Source of the DNA: Candidatus Heimdallarchaeota archaeon B3_Heim
GTDB taxonomy: Archaea; Asgardarchaeota; Heimdallarchaeia; Hodarchaeales; Hodarchaeaceae
Assembly (NCBI GenBank): GCA_003144275.1
Contig: NJBF01000048.1
Coordinates: 1-22,371 of the forward strand
DNA length: 22,371 nt
Reading direction: 5' to 3'
Part shown: positions 2,502 through 11,183 of the stretch, piece by piece
Numbering within the stretch: the first letter of the stretch is position 1
Layout: each line of letters begins with the position of its first letter
Program-made: the position numbers and the translations under genes
Notes under the pieces: generated by a model
Told to the model about the DNA's origin: nothing
What the model saw: the letters and a program-made list of their open reading frames with translations, nothing else
Databases searched by the model: none

Positions 2502-3560
2502 ATGGCTACAAATAAGATGATTGAAGTAATAGATTTAGCGAAACATTATTCTTCAAAAAAGCGTCTGGGTATTTTCAAAAGTGAAAAAAACGTTGTAGAA
2601 GCTTTAAAAGGAGTGACCTTTGATGTAGATCAAGGGGAAATCTTTGGATTGCTAGGACCAAATGGAGCAGGAAAAACAACCCTTATTAAAATCTTAACAA
2701 CGTTACTCCTACCTACATCAGGCATCGCTAAGGTTAATGGATATTCACTAGATCAGGATAAAGAAATTAAATCATCTATTGGAGCAATGCTGATGGGAGA
2801 GAGAGGATTATACTGGAAATTAACTGGAAGAGAGAATTTAGAATATTTTGGAGCGTTATACCATGTACCAAAATCAATCAGAAAAGATCGTATACAATCC
2901 TTAATAGACCAATTAGAATTAGATAAAATAGCTGATAGAACTGTTGAAACGTACTCTTCTGGTCAGAAAATGAAAATGGTTTTCGCTCGTGCCCTTGTAA
3001 ATGATGCCCCTATACTCATGCTTGATGAACCTACAAACACATTGGATGTAAAAGAAGCTCGTCGGTTACGAAAAATTGTGAAAGAACAAAATGAGGACTA
3101 TCATAAGACGATTATTTACTGTACCCATCTTATGCACGAAGCGGAAGAATTGTGTCATCGTGTTGGGATAATTGATCATGGCAAGATAATAGCTCTGGAT
3201 GACCCCATGGATCTTAAACAGCGTTTACAGAAAAATGATATTCTTAGTATTGAGGGTACAATCCCAGAAAATGCTCAAACTGCGTTAAATTCAACTCCAG
3301 GAGTCATGTCGGCCCAAATGCTCGTCAAACAGGTAAATAATGGATCAACTGAAGAAAAACCATATCTTAATATAACCTGTGAAAATAGTCATCGAAATTT
3401 ACCTGAAATCATAACAACACTAACCACAAACGGAGCGATAATTCGAAATATCGATAAGAAGGAAACAACTCTTGAGGATGTTTTTATTAATATTACGGGA
3501 CGATCATTAATGGACGATACAAGTCAGGTTATTAAAACAAAAACTGGAAGCGGTAATTAA
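2502..3560 (+). CDS. ABC-2 (DrrA-like) exporter ATP-binding subunit
   Basis: Walker A GPNGAGKTT, signature YSSGQ, Walker B ILMLDEPT, H-loop CTH and C-terminal TLEDVFINITG. Confidence 0.93.
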   Translation: MATNKMIEVIDLAKHYSSKKRLGIFKSEKNVVEALKGVTFDVDQGEIFGLLGPNGAGKTTLIKILTTLLLPTSGIAKVNGYSLDQDKEIKSSIGAMLMGERGLYWKLTGRENLEYFGALYHVPKSIRKDRIQSLIDQLELDKIADRTVETYSSGQKMKMVFARALVNDAPILMLDEPTNTLDVKEARRLRKIVKEQNEDYHKTIIYCTHLMHEAEELCHRVGIIDHGKIIALDDPMDLKQRLQKNDILSIEGTIPENAQTALNSTPGVMSAQMLVKQVNNGSTEEKPYLNITCENSHRNLPEIITTLTTNGAIIRNIDKKETTLEDVFINITGRSLMDDTSQVIKTKTGSGN

Positions 3561-4246
3561 TGTATGCTCCGATTCATAATCTGACATTCAAAGGTCATCT
3601 GGGAGTTGCATGGGGAACATTTGTAGTCAGAATTAAGACAATTTCTCGCTACAAAGGTATGCTATTTATGGATGTGTTAACTCCTGTATTGTTAGCTGCA
3701 ATGCCAATTCTATTAGGCCAAGCATTATCGGGTTCGATCACCGCAGCTTCAGCTAATTTTGAACAAAACACTGGGTTAATTGGCGCAAATTATGTTGCGT
3801 TCATTATTATAGGAGCGAATGTATTCTCCACAGTTACAACCTCTCTATGGCTATTTGGGTTTTTTATTAGACGAGAACAAACTCTTGGTACTCTAGAGGC
3901 CCTATTTATGTCACCAGCCCATCAAATTTCTATCCTTGTGGGACTAACGCTGTATGTACAAATTCGGTCGGTTGTCACATTTATTGGAGGATATTTTTTC
4001 GGATGTCTTTTATTCTCAATCAATCCTCTTCAGGGCCAAGTGCTCTTAGCTCTAGCCATTCTTTTGTTTGGGCTGACCCCAATTTATGGCTTATCTTTTC
4101 TTTTGGGCGCATTGGTTTTAAGGGTTAAACAAGCTAATAGCTTACTTAATACGCTTCAATGGATTGTTGGGGCATTTATGGGCGTATTTTTCTTCCGAAG
4201 AACAGTAACAATTGCGAAAAAACGTGGTAATCTAGCAGAGTATTGA
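3560..4246 (+). CDS. ABC-2 type permease, probably with an in-frame internal deletion near 4187-4195
   Basis: TAATG overlap with the ATPase. Hydrophobic helices and the IRREQTLGTLEALFMSP motif are present. GVFF is joined directly to a family-like C-terminal tail (FRR...KRGNLAEY). Confidence 0.8.
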   Translation: MYAPIHNLTFKGHLGVAWGTFVVRIKTISRYKGMLFMDVLTPVLLAAMPILLGQALSGSITAASANFEQNTGLIGANYVAFIIIGANVFSTVTTSLWLFGFFIRREQTLGTLEALFMSPAHQISILVGLTLYVQIRSVVTFIGGYFFGCLLFSINPLQGQVLLALAILLFGLTPIYGLSFLLGALVLRVKQANSLLNTLQWIVGAFMGVFFFRRTVTIAKKRGNLAEY

Positions 4247-4465: not shown

Positions 4466-4732
4466 ATGAAGCGAAAACACTTAATCAGTGGATTAATAAT
4501 ATTAGGACTTGTAGCGGTTGTCGCAACAACCGTAGTTGTTAATGGTTCAGTTATATCTGATACATTAAATGGAACGAGAGATGGTACTTGTGATGGTTTG
4601 GGGCCTCATGGTCAAACTGGTAATGGAAATCATGGTGGAAATGGGCCCATGGACGGAACTGGAAATCAATGGGGTTCACAAGGACCTCATGGTGACGGTA
4701 CTTGCAATCAAACCAGTATAATTGATGGATAA
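4466..4732 (+). CDS. Small secreted or membrane-anchored Gly/Asn/His-rich protein with 2x DGTC and GP(H/M) repeats
   Basis: Basic N-terminus MKRKH plus a ~20-aa hydrophobic stretch, then a low-complexity mature region. Has its own SD and TATA-like box. Confidence 0.8.
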   Translation: MKRKHLISGLIILGLVAVVATTVVVNGSVISDTLNGTRDGTCDGLGPHGQTGNGNHGGNGPMDGTGNQWGSQGPHGDGTCNQTSIIDG

Positions 4733-4928
4733 ACTTCTTATCCATCTTCTCTTTTTTTATATGAATCGGGGAAGGAAAATATTTTTTTTGGATCCTAGCA
4801 AAGAAAATTACAATAGCCAAGATGAAAGAGTTCATCTCGAAAAAGATACTGTTGATTCCAACCTGGATTAGGTCATATCCTAAAATCTAGATCCATCTTA
4901 GGTGAAAATGAATGAAAGCCAGATCGTT

Positions 4929-5096
4929 CTATTTAAGTAATAAGACAAGATAGTTGTTTATCCAAGGACAACCAATAGGATTAAATTCCTGGCCAACCCC
5001 ACATCTTTCTAGATGATCACAAATCAAACAAGGGCTATCCCAAGGTTTAACGAGCTCTGGATAATTCTCAAGAGTCAGTAATTCTTCCATAGACAT
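4929..5096 (-). CDS. 55-aa microprotein with a TFE-beta/RPC34(RPC6)-like [4Fe-4S] Cys motif (absent from the ORF track)
   Basis: Hand translation: MSMEELLTLENYPELVKPWDSPCLICDHLERCGVGQEFNPIGCPWINNYLVLLLK*. PC-x2-C-x5-C-x7-P-x2-C pattern. AAAGGA about 10 nt upstream of the ATG. Confidence 0.75.
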   Translation of the reverse strand: MSMEELLTLENYPELVKPWDSPCLICDHLERCGVGQEFNPIGCPWINNYLVLLLK

Positions 5097-5302
5097 AGTT
5101 TGTTCTATCCTTTTACTAAGATATTGCTGTAGAGAATTTTGAAAAAAAGGGAGAGATTCGTATGCAAATAAAAATGTCTCTCTTTAGAATGATCTACAAT
5201 TTCTATTAGCACAATGGGGTTTTTTATCTCTTTAGTAGCTAAGATTTCGCTACTTGAGCTGAAATTAAGATTCTAATAAATAGGTTCATTCAGGATAGAA
5301 CT

Positions 5303-6925
5303 TCATTCACAAGTAGAAAAATTGAAAATTTCACTTCTAACAGATTTACGGAGTAAAGTATCTTTTGGTGTCTTTCGTTTCATTGGATAATCAATAGTAA
5401 AATGTACACCCCGACTTTCTTTGCGATGAAAGCCAGCATCGATAATCATCTGTGCAATGTCTGCTAAATTCCGAAGTTCAATCAAATCTGAAGTAATATG
5501 AAAATTCCAGTAATATTGGTTTATCTCATCCTGTAAGAGGTGAATTCGTTGTTTAGCACGACGAAATCGTTTATCGGATCTAACTACCCCAACGTAGTTC
5601 CACATAAGTAATCTGAGCTCCATCCAATTTTGGGAGACAACTACAGATTCATCACTGTCTACAGCATCACCAGATTGCCAGCGGGAAAATGAACAAGCAG
5701 GGGGCCCGTTATTCACCAGATTACGGCATTCATTAGCTGCATAATGAGCCATCACACTAGATTCTAATAACGAGTTGGAAGCAAGTCGATTTGCTCCATG
5801 AAAGCCTGTACAAGCCACTTCTCCTATAGCTAATAATCCTAGAATGTCAGTAAGGCCAGAAACGGAGGCTTTTACTCCCCCAATGGCATAATGGGCAGCT
5901 GGTACTATAGGAATTGGTTCTTTTGAAATATCAATACCTAGCTCAAAACATTTAGCAAAAATACCTGGAAAACGCTTTTGGATAAAATCTGAACCTTTGA
6001 AAGATATGTCCAAAAATAAACAATCACTCCCAGAACGTTTAAGCTCAGAATCGATTGCTCTAGCAACCACATCACGAGGAGCTAATTCCATTCGAGAATC
6101 ATACGAGGACATAAACTGAAAACCTGCTTCATCAACCAGTTTGGCCCCCTCTCCTCTAAGTGCCTCTGAAATCAAAAAGGATTTTGCAAACGGATGATAG
6201 AGTAAGGTAGGATGAAATTGAATAAATTCCATATTCATAATAGTGGCACCAGCACGATAGGCCATAGCAATGCCGTCTCCACTTGAAATATCAGGGTTAC
6301 TAGTGTATAGGAAGGCCTTTCCCACCCCCCCAGTAGCTAGTACTGTAACTTTAGCAGCAAAATTCTTGACCAGATCTTGATTCTTATCTAAAACATAAGC
6401 CCCGAGGCATCGACCTGACCGAACCTTAAGATTGATAGCAATGTGATTTTCAAGTACAGTTATTCGAGGATCTTCTAAGACTCGGGCGATAAGCACATTT
6501 TGAATATCAGCCCCTGTTATATCTTTAGAATGGACTACTCGACGATGAGAATGCCCTGCTTCTAATCCTAGATCATAGTGATCATTCTCCTTTTTGGAGA
6601 ATTGAACACCCCATTTTACAAGTTCTTCAATTCGTTCAGGTGCTGCTGATACGATTTTTTTTACAACATCTAAGTGACACAGGCCATCTCCGACATTTAC
6701 AGTGTCTTGAATATGAGTTTCAAACGAATCATCTGTAGATAATGCTGCACTAATTCCTGCTTGTGCTAGGATCGTAGCACATTCTGTAAGATTCGTTTTT
6801 GTCAAAACTATAACTTTACCAATAGAGGCCACTTTTAATGCCATTGATAATCCAGCGATTCCCGATCCAATGATTAAAACATCACACATTGTCTCCAACG
6901 AATCAATAGTATCCACATTTTTCAC
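5303..6925 (-). CDS. nadB: L-aspartate oxidase
   Basis: FAD motif IIGSGIAG, AQAGIS, EAGHSHRRVVH, EFIQFHPT, LISEALRGEG, LAPRDVVAR, HYAIGG, HGANRLASNSLLE and ESRGVH. GTG start. Confidence 0.95.
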   Translation of the reverse strand: MKNVDTIDSLETMCDVLIIGSGIAGLSMALKVASIGKVIVLTKTNLTECATILAQAGISAALSTDDSFETHIQDTVNVGDGLCHLDVVKKIVSAAPERIEELVKWGVQFSKKENDHYDLGLEAGHSHRRVVHSKDITGADIQNVLIARVLEDPRITVLENHIAINLKVRSGRCLGAYVLDKNQDLVKNFAAKVTVLATGGVGKAFLYTSNPDISSGDGIAMAYRAGATIMNMEFIQFHPTLLYHPFAKSFLISEALRGEGAKLVDEAGFQFMSSYDSRMELAPRDVVARAIDSELKRSGSDCLFLDISFKGSDFIQKRFPGIFAKCFELGIDISKEPIPIVPAAHYAIGGVKASVSGLTDILGLLAIGEVACTGFHGANRLASNSLLESSVMAHYAANECRNLVNNGPPACSFSRWQSGDAVDSDESVVVSQNWMELRLLMWNYVGVVRSDKRFRRAKQRIHLLQDEINQYYWNFHITSDLIELRNLADIAQMIIDAGFHRKESRGVHFTIDYPMKRKTPKDTLLRKSVRSEIFNFSTCE

Positions 6926-7086: not shown

Positions 7087-7755
7087 TCATTGCATACGAT
7101 AAGTACACTGCCCTCGTTCCACACATGACTTACATCGTGTCTCCCATCTGGATTTCTTTATATCTTTCCCAATGTTAATAGCAAATGATACAGATTTAAT
7201 GGGTTTCATCATATATCCTTCAGTCAGAGATACTCCAATATCTTCACTGGGGAGATTATTGAAAATTAATTCTTGATCCTGTACACTCCACTGACAATAA
7301 CCTGGACTAAACCGTTGTGAATACTCAAAATTTTGGCTTTTTACGATATCAACAATTTCACGATTCACCTGATCGGCCACTTGTTCTACACCAGCAGATC
7401 CAAACGCATCTAATATAACGCCGTCTACATATTCCCCTGATTTCATTCGATTATTCGCTTCCAAAGGTAGAGATTTACCAATTGTTACGATAGCCAATGC
7501 CACTCTTTCAGCTTCAGCAAAGCATTCTCGAAAGGGGAGTTCTGAAGCATTAAAAATCTTGAAAATACCTTTCGGTTCATATAGAGTGACTGCTATGCTT
7601 TTCATTCGATCCAATTGTATCTTTAAATCGGGTGTAAGCGCTTTTCGAGAGGAATTATGAGAAGATTTGTTGCTACGTTGCAGATAGTAGACTATATCTT
7701 TATCCCGAACTGGAATTTCCTCATATTTTCTTCTATGAATCAAAATTGGAACCAA
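7087..7755 (-). CDS. Stand-alone B12-dependent methionine synthase activation (SAM-binding reactivation) domain
   Basis: VTIG, ILDAFGSAGVE, RFSPGY and MKPIKSVS motifs of the short activation-domain family, plus C-terminal C-x2-C-x5-C-x-YR. The start is uncertain (TTG). Confidence 0.85.
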   Translation of the reverse strand: MVPILIHRRKYEEIPVRDKDIVYYLQRSNKSSHNSSRKALTPDLKIQLDRMKSIAVTLYEPKGIFKIFNASELPFRECFAEAERVALAIVTIGKSLPLEANNRMKSGEYVDGVILDAFGSAGVEQVADQVNREIVDIVKSQNFEYSQRFSPGYCQWSVQDQELIFNNLPSEDIGVSLTEGYMMKPIKSVSFAINIGKDIKKSRWETRCKSCVERGQCTYRMQ

Positions 7756-7773
7756 AAAATTCTTTTATCATGA

Positions 7774-9198
7774 TCATAAATATTTAGAGGAGATTTTATC
7801 CAATTCAGTTGATTTTAAATTATCCAGAGCTTTTTGTGGGCTTTTCGCTAAAAGTCCTTCAATTTCTTCTTTTGCTCTCTGCCTAGAGGAACGAGAACCT
7901 GCTTTTTTCCATTCATCGCGAGTCATCCTAGCAATTATAGGACTCGGTAAGAAAAGCTCTTTACGGAATAGTTGAAGAGTCGATGGATGAGATAACAACT
8001 CATTAGTATTATCGTAATCTTTTAGTATTTCTTCAGCAAACGGAGACCCATAATCATGTATACCTCTAAGAAATCGTTTAACCATACCGGCAATTTCATT
8101 ATCAATTAATAATTTTTCAATTGATTGACAGGATTCAAAATCGAGCATTCCAGGACCAGAAATCATGTTAATACCGGTTAATCCAGCTAACAAAGCACCC
8201 ATCCCAGCCTCCAAACCAGCTTGTGCATCAGGAATCTTGGCATCACTCAGACTCATATAGGCATGAGTAGGCAAATTTAAATATTTACCCATTTCAACAT
8301 CCCCAATGTCAATCATCATTGTTTCAATTGCTCCCATTGGTGTAGTACCATGTTTCATGTCCATTATCGCAGGGGAACCTCCCCAAATAATTGGAGCTCC
8401 TTTTTTAGCTAATTGAGAAATTACAACTCCTGCAAGAGACTCGGCACAATGTTGAGTAATTGAACCGATCAATGTTATCGGTGCATTGGCTCCTGACATA
8501 GGCATACTGATAAATTCAGAGGGTATCATTCTCTCAGCGGCGTCAATAACAGACTGTGTTGTTAGATCCGACCAAGAAAGTGGTGGTGAGGGACAAGCAT
8601 CAAAAATTGCAAGAGGTTTAGCTGCTAAATCTTTTTCAGACGTGCGACACGTCAATAATAATTCATTCATTATTGAAAAACTCTCTTTACGAAATGTACC
8701 TGTAACAATGGGCTTGTGACCGTATTTAAGAGTCGTATATAGACGATGCCAATCTTGGGCACTCTTTGGAACATCAGAATATACTAGTGATGTACTCTGA
8801 GCATCAATATTTAATAATTGATCAACAATTTTGGTAAAACGAATGAAATCTTGATGGAGAGGTTCTCTTATTTGTCCACTATTTTCATCAAGAATGAATA
8901 TAGCTGCAGATCCAGGGTCAAAATGAATGTTATCATCTTTGAGGGATAGATGAACGTTTCCTTCACGATCATACATTGTTATTTCATGAGGTGGGGAGGT
9001 AAGACACTTATCTACTAAATCAGAGGGAATATAATACCGATGGTTATCATTAGGCACTCCTTGTTCCTTGAGAAGAACTTCTGCCTCTGAATTTTCAAAT
9101 AAAACACCTAGCGATTTAAGAATATGTTTGGCTTCCTCAAAAATTTTCTTCTTGTATTCATCATTAAGTAATGCTACTTTAGGTCTTAAGATTCCCAT
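7774..9198 (-). CDS. mttB: Trimethylamine methyltransferase (MttB/MtgB) superfamily protein, non-pyrrolysine
   Basis: N-terminal RPKVALL...ILKSLGV, SPPLSW, GANAPITLIG..Q..AESLAG, PIIWGG, MDMKHG, SDAKIPDAQAGLE and GMLDFE. No in-frame TAG. The substrate is unknown. Confidence 0.9.
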   Translation of the reverse strand: MGILRPKVALLNDEYKKKIFEEAKHILKSLGVLFENSEAEVLLKEQGVPNDNHRYYIPSDLVDKCLTSPPHEITMYDREGNVHLSLKDDNIHFDPGSAAIFILDENSGQIREPLHQDFIRFTKIVDQLLNIDAQSTSLVYSDVPKSAQDWHRLYTTLKYGHKPIVTGTFRKESFSIMNELLLTCRTSEKDLAAKPLAIFDACPSPPLSWSDLTTQSVIDAAERMIPSEFISMPMSGANAPITLIGSITQHCAESLAGVVISQLAKKGAPIIWGGSPAIMDMKHGTTPMGAIETMMIDIGDVEMGKYLNLPTHAYMSLSDAKIPDAQAGLEAGMGALLAGLTGINMISGPGMLDFESCQSIEKLLIDNEIAGMVKRFLRGIHDYGSPFAEEILKDYDNTNELLSHPSTLQLFRKELFLPSPIIARMTRDEWKKAGSRSSRQRAKEEIEGLLAKSPQKALDNLKSTELDKISSKYL

Positions 9199-9209
9199 TT
9201 CTACACTTC

Positions 9210-10094
9210 CTAGCGATTGTCAATTAACATTCTCATCTTTTGAATATGGGTTGGGGTGGTACCACAACAACCTCCCACAATTTTCACTCCCAGATCAATC
9301 ATCTGTTCTATATCATTCACAAACTCATCAGGTGATTGATCATAAACAGTAATCCCTCCCTCTAACCGTGGTTGTCCGGCATTGGGTTTGACTGAGACTG
9401 GTTTATCAGTCAATTGCACCAATTCTTTGGTAAGCTCTATCATTTGATCTGAGCCCAAGGTGCAATTTGTACCGATTACGTCAACATTCTCCTCCTCTAA
9501 AGTATTCACACAGGTTTCCAAAGAATCTCCCATGATTGTGAAAAAACCCCTTGTTTTTGTTTTACGGTAAGTCATCGAGGCTATGATTGGTTTCAGAGAT
9601 ACTTCTTTTATTGCGTGAATTGCGGCTGACATTTCCTGAAGATCTGACATTGTCTCAATATGCCACAAATCAACGCCTACCTCCAATACTTCAACTTGTT
9701 GTTGAAATCCATTTTTCCATTGATCTCCTGATGCTTCTCCAACTGGTGGTCTAAATTCACCAGATGGACCGATATCTCCCACAATCAATTTTCCTCTTGG
9801 GGGTTGAATATCTTTAATATTTCTTAGTGCCTCGATATTAATCTTCTGTAAATATTCACTTAAATGCTGTCTCTCTAAATTTACTAAATTTGCACTAAAA
9901 GTACACGTTTGAACCATATCTGCCCCTGATTCATAATAACTAGCTAATACTTTTTTAACAATTTCAGGGCCTTCAATATTCAAGAAATCGGGTAATTTGC
10001 CCGGTTCTAGATTATAGTTCATTAATTGTGTACCCATTGCTCCATCGAATAAAATAATCTTTGATACATTACCTAGCCATTGTGTGAAAGACAT
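9210..10094 (-). CDS. Stand-alone homocysteine S-methyltransferase domain (MetH N-terminal module)
   Basis: FDGAMGT, TCTFSAN, GDIGPSG, ETMSD, Zn-ligand motifs GTNC and GGCCGTTP, and KPNAGQP. Confidence 0.92.
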   Translation of the reverse strand: MSFTQWLGNVSKIILFDGAMGTQLMNYNLEPGKLPDFLNIEGPEIVKKVLASYYESGADMVQTCTFSANLVNLERQHLSEYLQKINIEALRNIKDIQPPRGKLIVGDIGPSGEFRPPVGEASGDQWKNGFQQQVEVLEVGVDLWHIETMSDLQEMSAAIHAIKEVSLKPIIASMTYRKTKTRGFFTIMGDSLETCVNTLEEENVDVIGTNCTLGSDQMIELTKELVQLTDKPVSVKPNAGQPRLEGGITVYDQSPDEFVNDIEQMIDLGVKIVGGCCGTTPTHIQKMRMLIDNR

Positions 10095-10129
10095 CAGTAA
10101 CTCACTTTATTCTAACATATAAATCCAGA

Positions 10130-10774
10130 TTACATCAAACTTTTTGCTAATTTTACAGATTCAACTGCATTTTCAGCGTAACCATCAGCATGGCATTCGT
10201 CTACCCATCCCTGTGTAACAGGGGCACCCCCAAATATCACTTTGAAGTTATTTCTAAGATTTTTCTGTTCTAAGATCTCAATTACTTTTTTCTGATTTAA
10301 CATTGTCGTGGTTAACAGAGTTGAAACTCCAATGATATCTACGTTCTCATTAATTGCCACATCAACTATTTTTTCTGCTTTCACATCGGTACCTAAGTCA
10401 ATAACTTGAAATCCATTTGCTCGAAGCATAGTGGCGACAATGGTTTTACCAATGGAGTGAATATCGCCTTCAATTGTAGCTAAGAGAACTTTACCTGAGG
10501 ATTGACGTTCAGACCCAGATGATTGCAGCTGTGGTGTAAGAACATCCACCGCTTTTTGCATAATCTGTGCTCCAGACATTAATTCTGGAAGAAAGAATTC
10601 TCCATCATCCCAAAGATCCCCTACTTTACGAATGCCTTCTCCAAATCCTTTCTCGATCACTTTCAAAAGATTCATTTCTTCTTTGAGTGCTTGATTTGCT
10701 AAATTCAACGCTTTTTCTTGATCTAGGTTCACAATGGCATCAGCCATTTCTTTATAGATTTCTTCTGCATCCAT
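10130..10774 (-). CDS. Corrinoid (cobalamin-binding) protein, MttC/MtgC-like
   Basis: Cap domain (FFLPELM), D-x-H-x-x-G (GDIHSIGK) base-off/His-on motif, DLG, STLLTTT and GGAPV. Confidence 0.93.
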   Translation of the reverse strand: MDAEEIYKEMADAIVNLDQEKALNLANQALKEEMNLLKVIEKGFGEGIRKVGDLWDDGEFFLPELMSGAQIMQKAVDVLTPQLQSSGSERQSSGKVLLATIEGDIHSIGKTIVATMLRANGFQVIDLGTDVKAEKIVDVAINENVDIIGVSTLLTTTMLNQKKVIEILEQKNLRNNFKVIFGGAPVTQGWVDECHADGYAENAVESVKLAKSLM

Positions 10775-10820
10775 CTTCAGAAAATCTCCTTTTTAACAAT
10801 TAAGATCGATAAATAAATTA

Positions 10821-11183
10821 TTATCTATAGTTTTCCCAGCTAAAATCAATTTCGTGAAGAAAGGTTTGAAATTCCAATTTTCTCCCTTCTGGATCTGTAG
10901 TAAAGAAGTTGTAAATATTATATTCTGTATTCTCAGTGGGTTTAGCTGCCGTCTGTTGTTGTAGTCTTTGATAAATGTCATCGACATCTTGTTTATTCTT
11001 GTAAAAAAAAGTTAATAACCCGTCTTTACTAATTTTATCTCCTTCACAAAACCCGAATAAAAAATTATCGTGTTTAAAGATAATACAGTCACCCTGATCG
11101 ATCCAAATTTTTGAACCGATGCTAGTATAGAAAAATTTCATCTTCTCAAGATCTTGAGACCTTAAAAATACGATACCAGCCAT
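10821..11183 (-). CDS. VOC/glyoxalase superfamily protein
   Basis: DLEKMKFFYT, VDDIYQRL and FFTTDPEGRKLEFQ patterns in a 120-aa protein. Confidence 0.8.
   Translation of the reverse strand: MAGIVFLRSQDLEKMKFFYTSIGSKIWIDQGDCIIFKHDNFLFGFCEGDKISKDGLLTFFYKNKQDVDDIYQRLQQQTAAKPTENTEYNIYNFFTTDPEGRKLEFQTFLHEIDFSWENYR

Follow-up and report, generated by a model that had tools for sequence, protein, structure and literature searches.

Does a hodarchaeal lineage carry out the work of the transcription factor TFE-beta with a protein that holds its iron–sulfur domain and little else? Archaeal TFE-alpha/beta corresponds both to TFIIE and to the RPC62/39 subcomplex of Pol III, and the Hodarchaeales count among the nearest relatives of eukaryotes known so far. 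The question is raised by a 55-aa open reading frame (ORF) of Candidatus Heimdallarchaeota archaeon B3_Heim, located in the window analyzed here (a whole stretch of DNA of 22,371 nucleotides). A first-pass annotation, made from the letters and an ORF list, had read this ORF as a stand-alone iron–sulfur (Fe-S) domain of the TFE-beta/RPC34 type without a winged helix, and had proposed that it is a split TFE-beta, a minimal TFE-beta or a competitor. The features of the locus are as follows.

4929..5096, minus strand: coding sequence of the winged-helix-less TFE-beta homologue, 55 aa, as given in the ORF listing, with an ATG start and the stop codon included
4944..5039, minus strand: Fe-S domain proper, residues 20–51, W19-x2-P-C23-x2-C26-x5-C32-x7-P40-x2-C43-x5-Y49-L
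5040..5096, minus strand: acidic N-terminal leader, residues 1–19, conserved and genus-specific, equivalent to the linker that precedes the Fe-S domain in full-length TFE-beta
5103..5110, minus strand: GGATAGAA block, putatively Shine-Dalgarno-like, 7–14 nt upstream of the ATG
5166..5182, minus strand: GAGAGAC plus ATTTTTATTT block, candidate BRE/TATA of the gene's own promoter, about 75 nt upstream of the ATG
5303..6925, minus strand: L-aspartate oxidase gene (nadB), a neighbour and not part of the factor (Pfam FAD_binding_2, 9e-89; Succ_DH_flav_C)

The four cysteines of the 55-aa protein (C23, C26, C32 and C43) follow the pattern C-x2-C-x5-C-x10-C, with Pro22 directly before the first Cys, Pro40 three residues ahead of the fourth and Y49-L50 about six residues past it. 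The motif and its two prolines are thus as the first-pass annotation had described them. A winged helix is absent from the protein, since only 22 residues precede the first Cys. The frame is closed by an in-frame TAA at 5184–5186 (minus strand), 87 nt upstream, and contains no ATG, GTG or TTG between 5096 and this stop, which confirms the annotation on this point as well.

We examined the conservation of the ORF by six-frame searches and found it in 17 out of 21 same-genus genomes, as 53–60 aa with 68–91% identity and without internal stops. The ORF did not prove to be the broken 3΄ end of a longer gene, a concern that the annotation had raised. Twenty columns were invariant among the 19 genus sequences, including all four Cys. 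A codon comparison of 15 loci, all free of stops, gave dN values of 0.03–0.2 with dS values that were at least 1 or saturated (median dN/dS of 0.066 over 40 computable pairs). The start codon was ATG or TTG in 14 of these loci, with a GGA, GAGG or GGAGG Shine-Dalgarno-like block ahead of it. The GGATAGAA block was invariant across the four closest species although dS in their coding sequences was at least 1, and in more distant congeners GAGG or GGAGG was located 6–9 nt before an ATG or TTG start. In the protein database, we found 18 clusters of 53–90 aa, the named ones being 'hypothetical protein' entries of Candidatus Hodarchaeales MAGs; the homologues in NCBI MAGs are called genes bearing the same label, and the annotation's word 'unannotated' has no basis in the window itself. 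The 55-aa ORF is a real gene and more than a chance reading frame, and it is under strong purifying selection. A decaying, functionless TFE-beta remnant might likewise be short, have lost one domain and be found away from the ancestral locus; however, dN/dS of about 0.07 with saturated dS, the 15 loci without stops and the conserved start codon, Shine-Dalgarno-like block and length make such a remnant extremely improbable.

The spacer between nadB and the ORF retained several conserved blocks in the four closest species despite saturated synonymous sites. In an alignment of these four intergenic regions, the GAGAGAC-ATTTTTATTT block was kept and was followed by a T-run, which in the window consists of seven uninterrupted T's. 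A further block of about 30 nt just past the nadB stop (window 5218–5247, minus strand), AAATCTTAGCTACTAAAGAGATAAAAAACC, was almost invariant in the four species, with synonymous sites saturated, and may represent a terminator, a small RNA or a site of protein binding.

To avoid circularity in testing for homology, we took an alignment restricted to the microproteins and compared it with seven proteins verified as RPC34 (PF05158, E = 1e-39 to 1e-63). The hhalign comparison gave a probability of 96.3% and an E-value of 1.8e-9; its 45 columns brought all four Cys into register and placed residues 8–52 of the microprotein on the C-terminus of RPC34, where the annotation had expected the likeness to lie. 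A search of Pfam and NCBIfam with the single microprotein sequence returned no match, including to PF05158, and an hmmsearch of PDB sequences with the microprotein-only profile, less sensitive than comparing profile with profile, did not reach RPC6, the top matches being the Testin LIM domain (E = 0.05) and PhnJ. Residues 21–51 weakly matched the C-terminal end of ORFs of 131–158 aa in other families of the class, which share the frame W-x(3-5)-PC-x2-C-x5-C-x10-C-x6-WL with Cys at 93/96/102/113. Three long or intermediate forms gave sub-threshold matches to the last 45–60 positions of Pfam RNA_pol_Rpc34 (E = 4.8e-5 to 0.014), and throughout the genome and 40 relatives PF05158 yielded only C-terminal sub-threshold matches, located on long forms.

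When the Heimdallarchaeial long forms and the microproteins were combined in one profile, the top PDB match was human RPC6 (residues 284–315, E = 0.006), and 133 representatives were retrieved among 1.84 billion proteins. PF05158 was carried by 54 of 130 representatives (best E = 1e-63), and C-x2-C-x5-C-x10(-12)-C-x6-W occurred in almost all of those retrieved. Among 130 family members, C23, C26, C32 and C43 were invariant, and P22, P40 and the aromatic residue at position 49 were nearly so; conservation of the cysteines, on which the annotation had made its reading depend, therefore extends from the genus to the family. AF2 with the 130-sequence alignment predicted residues 21–55 with block-mean pLDDT values of 88–94, compared with 62 for a shallow alignment of 19 sequences. 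The leader had low values (56–64), and its residues M3, E5, L7, Y12, P13, L15 and W19 were invariant within the genus. A Foldseek search of the PDB with the model, which does not contain the cluster, returned four matches only, all of them human Pol III RPC6 chains (rmsd 1.3–1.8 Å, 29–36 columns, probabilities of 0.91–0.41), with E-values of 0.44–2.7, which fall short of significance for a domain of this small size.

These results show that the 55-aa protein is homologous to the Fe-S domain of TFE-beta/RPC34. It is a homologue of one domain and not a canonical member of the family, since the winged helix before the Fe-S domain is missing and with it the winged helix and FeS architecture by which the family is defined. 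We also considered that the protein might be a Cys4 zinc-binding microprotein with another partner, resembling TFE-beta by common descent only and having a function unrelated to TFE-alpha. Cys4 motifs can bind Zn, the microprotein-only profile weakly touches a LIM zinc finger, and the acidic N-terminal leader is specific to the genus. However, in its cysteine spacing and in the Pro, Gly and aromatic residues around the cysteines the protein matches domains experimentally known to hold [4Fe-4S], all fold matches are to RPC6 (although their E-values are not significant), and the controlled complex model described below favors TFE-alpha; we regard a zinc-binding protein of this kind as quite unlikely.

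We then asked whether the genome contains another TFE-beta, or the missing half of this one. In a six-frame translation of the genome, which is 94% complete, the only match to an HMM of the Fe-S domain (129 sequences) was the 55-aa ORF (E = 5.5e-13). An HMM of the winged helix, built from 73 full-length relatives, matched only generic Lrp/AsnC and MarR-type proteins of the genome, and the TFIIE_beta (PF02186) and TFA2_Winged_2 (PF18121) models found nothing above noise in it. No winged-helix half was located beside the gene or at the ancestral locus. The possibility of a split gene was rejected on the grounds of these HMM matches and of the interval between SRP19 and FtsJ, which contains no ORF. 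A 150-aa neighbour of a related microprotein (L055), considered as the other part of a split gene, was not a winged helix.

Among 251 Asgard genomes with a completeness of at least 80%, 238 contained a TFE-beta homologue, nearly all of them in exactly one copy. Outside the Hodarchaeales, the homologue spanned the whole profile, with winged helix and Fe-S domain, in open frames of 112–228 aa. Within the window's genus, each of the 14 genomes with a homologue gave a single match, restricted to the C-terminal part, in open frames of 56–100 aa; in the two genomes of the sister family, the open frames measured 107 aa and 65 aa, the latter truncated by a contig end. Three same-genus genomes were without a match: in two of them (G013 and G019) the contigs end next to nadB or its neighbour, and for the third (G017) there is no such explanation. 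An apparent short form in another genome (G254) turned out to be a long form truncated where its contig ends and was discarded.

These results show that the 55-aa gene is the sole TFE-beta homologue in this genome, at 94% completeness, and in the genus. Of the three alternatives in the first-pass annotation, a minimal TFE-beta fits this distribution; a split TFE-beta does not, since no winged-helix half was found, and a competitor is unlikely in the genus, since there is no full-length TFE-beta with which to compete. A 2018 review simply listed TFE-beta as present in Asgard archaea, and a literature search for a TFE-beta without a winged helix found no paper describing one. Since the gene is annotated as 'hypothetical protein', comparative tables may mistakenly count these lineages as lacking TFE-beta.

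The position of the gene raises the question of how the short form arose. Gene nadB is immediately upstream of the 55-aa ORF on the same strand, 206 nt away; this adjacency is kept in most congeners, some of which have an extra gene inserted. The nearest full-length relatives by taxonomy are the TFE-beta proteins of other Heimdallarchaeia (L016–L022 and L025; 131–158 aa), which belong to the same class and share the Cys/W frame. Unlike the microprotein, they have a domain of about 85 residues at the N-terminus and are encoded in an S8e-SRP19-Gar1-TFEb-FtsJ-Trm1-RNaseHII locus. We found the long form directly upstream of FtsJ-Trm1-RNaseHII in six genomes from three other Heimdallarchaeial families, and the full order at L036, the one locus at which the upstream genes were scanned. 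In the window's genome, contig 21 contains SRP19, a gap of 85 bp, FtsJ and Trm1, and Gar1 and S8e are located on contig 57. The interval between SRP19 and FtsJ has no ORF, so that the ancestral TFE-beta slot is empty and contains no remnant; in contrast to the usual Asgard neighbourhood of TFE-beta, the gene of the window's genus is found not at the SRP19/Gar1-FtsJ-Trm1 position but behind nadB, a location outside the transcription/translation neighbourhood that counts against a TFE-beta role. As an observation on genome organization, the information-processing cluster of other Heimdallarchaeia is broken up here (L044:3045-5411 and L045:5182-5964, on contigs 21 and 57).

In three other MAGs, labeled Promethearchaeota, Odinarchaeota and Hodarchaeales by NCBI, microproteins of 56, 63 and 71 aa occur exactly at SRP19-[x]-FtsJ-Trm1, without nadB. 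These microproteins (L046:4001-4171, L048:4001-4192 and L054:377-592) contain the Fe-S domain only, and their N-terminal tails are Lys-rich, compared with the acidic leader of the window's genus. In a tree of the Fe-S domain, a single clade of 16 winged-helix-less proteins comprised the window's genus, the three in-place microproteins and four further short forms (SH-aLRT 95), although the tree should be read with caution, being based on 41 columns and a quick search with SH-aLRT support only. Since these clade-mates occupy the ancestral SRP19-[x]-FtsJ slot, gene order and phylogeny suggest that the winged helix was probably lost in place and that the gene was subsequently relocated beside nadB in the genus. 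A genome of another Asgard family (G113) carries, directly upstream of FtsJ, a full-length TFE-beta (about 155–190 aa) and an 87-aa copy with the Fe-S domain only, in tandem (L052:3891-4460 and 4600-4899). Because long and short copies coexist there, the winged-helix-less forms may have arisen by a duplication after which the long copy was lost; the tandem could itself be such a duplication stage or, alternatively, a regulatory pair.

The same gene order also allows a different function, in which an Fe-S (or Zn) protein that merely retained the TFE-beta fold was recruited to L-aspartate oxidase and NAD synthesis, for example as an electron acceptor or cluster donor. Indeed, most same-genus genomes have nadB directly ahead of the gene on the same strand, whereas the neighbour on the gene's other side varies. 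However, its clade-mates at SRP19-[x]-FtsJ are without nadB, a form from the same order (L039) is flanked by a CBS-domain gene and glmS, and another gene separates the microprotein gene from nadB in some congeners. Moreover, neither nadA nor nadC is located nearby, the genes upstream being an MttB/corrinoid/MetH-like set, a conserved candidate promoter and T-run stand between nadB and the ORF, and the most conserved surface of the protein is the one predicted to contact TFE-alpha. We therefore consider a role in NAD synthesis very unlikely.

The prospective partner is encoded in the genome: TFE-alpha (PF02002, E = 4.8e-11) is a protein of 203 aa (L026:1318-1929, contig 38) that is 64–100% identical across the clade. 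We modeled the complex of TFE-alpha and the microprotein with a riding 4Fe-4S cluster and obtained a score of 0.64 (0.62–0.67 in three runs), compared with 0.02 for the best control. In calibration, 58 of 80 solved complexes attained this mark, as did 2 of 110 mismatched pairs; neither a riding ligand nor user-supplied alignments formed part of that calibration. The runs shared at least 92% of contacts, with a partner pLDDT of at least 69. In the predicted interface, residues 20–54 of the microprotein contact the N-terminus (5–13), residues 111–125 and 136–139 and the tail (167–179) of TFE-alpha, and this predicted surface is the most conserved part of the microprotein. The model supports binding of the microprotein to TFE-alpha, the association that the first-pass annotation had suggested modeling, although the pass may reflect memory of solved RPC3-RPC6 structures. 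The predicted interface agrees with biochemical results from Saccharolobus, in which the winged helix and tail of TFE-alpha together with TFE-beta's FeS domain constitute the minimal dimer (PMC4495717).

The reading that we favor, with a probability of roughly 60%, is that the gene encodes a minimal TFE-beta, reduced to the C-terminal cubane [4Fe-4S] domain. In such a factor, the four Cys would bind a [4Fe-4S] cluster, as their conservation as ligands suggests, and the folded domain would dock on the end of the winged helix, the next helix and the C-terminal tail of TFE-alpha, as in the model. Docking may stabilize TFE-alpha on the RNA polymerase clamp and thereby support promoter opening. The DNA-facing winged helix, which canonical TFE-beta projects over the cleft, would have been lost, and the cluster would still leave the factor responsive to oxidation or to the supply of iron.

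An experimental precedent for this arrangement is available in S. solfataricus TFE-beta (Sso0944), whose Cys are at 92/95/101/112 (PMC4495717). The two proteins have in common the C-x2-C-x5-C-x10-C motif, the Pro before the first Cys and a single copy per genome, whereas the microprotein lacks the winged helix, has 55 aa instead of about 125–190 aa and begins with the acidic 19-residue leader. A cubane [4Fe-4S] cluster was shown experimentally in both Sso TFE-beta and hRPC39, and an engineered TFE-beta from which the winged helix had been removed (deletion 1–73) still dimerized, bound the RNAP clamp and supported the open complex, with reduced stimulation of the pre-initiation complex (PIC) (PMC4495717). 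The microprotein appears to be a natural counterpart of this deletion. Since S. solfataricus TFE-beta without the winged helix stimulates PIC formation less, a beta subunit of this kind may be a weaker factor, unless something else compensates.

Alternatively, the protein may be a regulatory Fe-S/redox modulator and not a constitutive subunit, binding TFE-alpha only with an intact cluster and so tuning global initiation, or acting as a decoy at the beta-binding site. In Saccharolobus, the levels of TFE-beta and the integrity of its cluster respond to growth phase and oxidative stress (PMC4495717, PMC7289017), the tandem of long and short copies before FtsJ in G113 makes a decoy role conceivable, and the predicted binding to TFE-alpha fits a modulator as well as it fits a minimal TFE-beta. 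However, neither the genome nor the 14 same-genus genomes contain a full-length TFE-beta to compete with, and strict single-copy conservation and very low dN/dS resemble those of a core subunit. We judge a modulator to be unlikely, and it differs from a minimal TFE-beta mainly in degree.

Reduction of this family in particular lineages is not new, and TFIIE-beta is a case in which the winged helix was kept and the cluster lost. In haloarchaeal TFE-beta and yeast C34, too, the winged helix persists whereas the Cys and the cluster are gone (PMC5861453; PMC4495717); the microprotein is likewise a lineage-specific reduction, but with the opposite loss, the cluster domain being kept and the winged helix given up. 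The C-terminal [4Fe-4S] domain of RPC6/RPC39/C34 (PF05158; human RPC6 in 7A6H, 7D58 and 8ITY) is homologous to the microprotein, whereas RPC6 is a stable polymerase subunit with three winged helices before this domain and the microprotein has none. In human Pol III, the Fe-S domain is positioned over the clamp and anchors the RPC3-RPC6-RPC7 heterotrimer on the polymerase core (PMC8837262).

A broader proposition, which we put forward tentatively and at somewhat less than even odds, is that an Asgard clade including the window's genus initiates basal transcription with TFE-alpha and a [4Fe-4S]-only beta subunit of about 55 aa, the winged helix being dispensable in nature or its role having passed to another factor or to the basic or acidic tails. 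If this were true, the ancestral, indispensable job of TFE-beta/RPC39 would be to join TFE-alpha to the polymerase clamp as a redox-sensitive Fe-S clasp, and the clade would provide, in close relatives of eukaryotes, a domain-level intermediate within the history of the split between TFIIE and RPC62/39. As a minimal TFE-beta, the gene would indicate which half of the protein is kept by selection when one is given up, and its 55 residues would offer a handle on whether TFE function and redox control of global transcription need more than the Fe-S clasp.

Several other features of the window may be recorded. Upstream of nadB (7087–11183, minus strand), Pfam identified an MttB-family methyltransferase, a homocysteine S-methyltransferase, a corrinoid protein and a gene resembling the MetH activation domain. 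On the plus strand, an ABC-2 permease is encoded at 3560–4246 as a single 228-aa ORF that starts like the first permease of its relatives and ends like the C-terminus of the second; the relatives have two genes, of more than 190 aa and about 280 aa, and the ORF looks like the product of a deletion that fused the two. Also on the plus strand, an 88-aa ORF (4466–4732) with no family match has a hydrophobic anchor at its N-terminus and, after it, a stretch rich in Gly, Asn and His that contains two DGTC motifs; a 94-aa ORF of the opposite strand (4551–4835) overlaps it.
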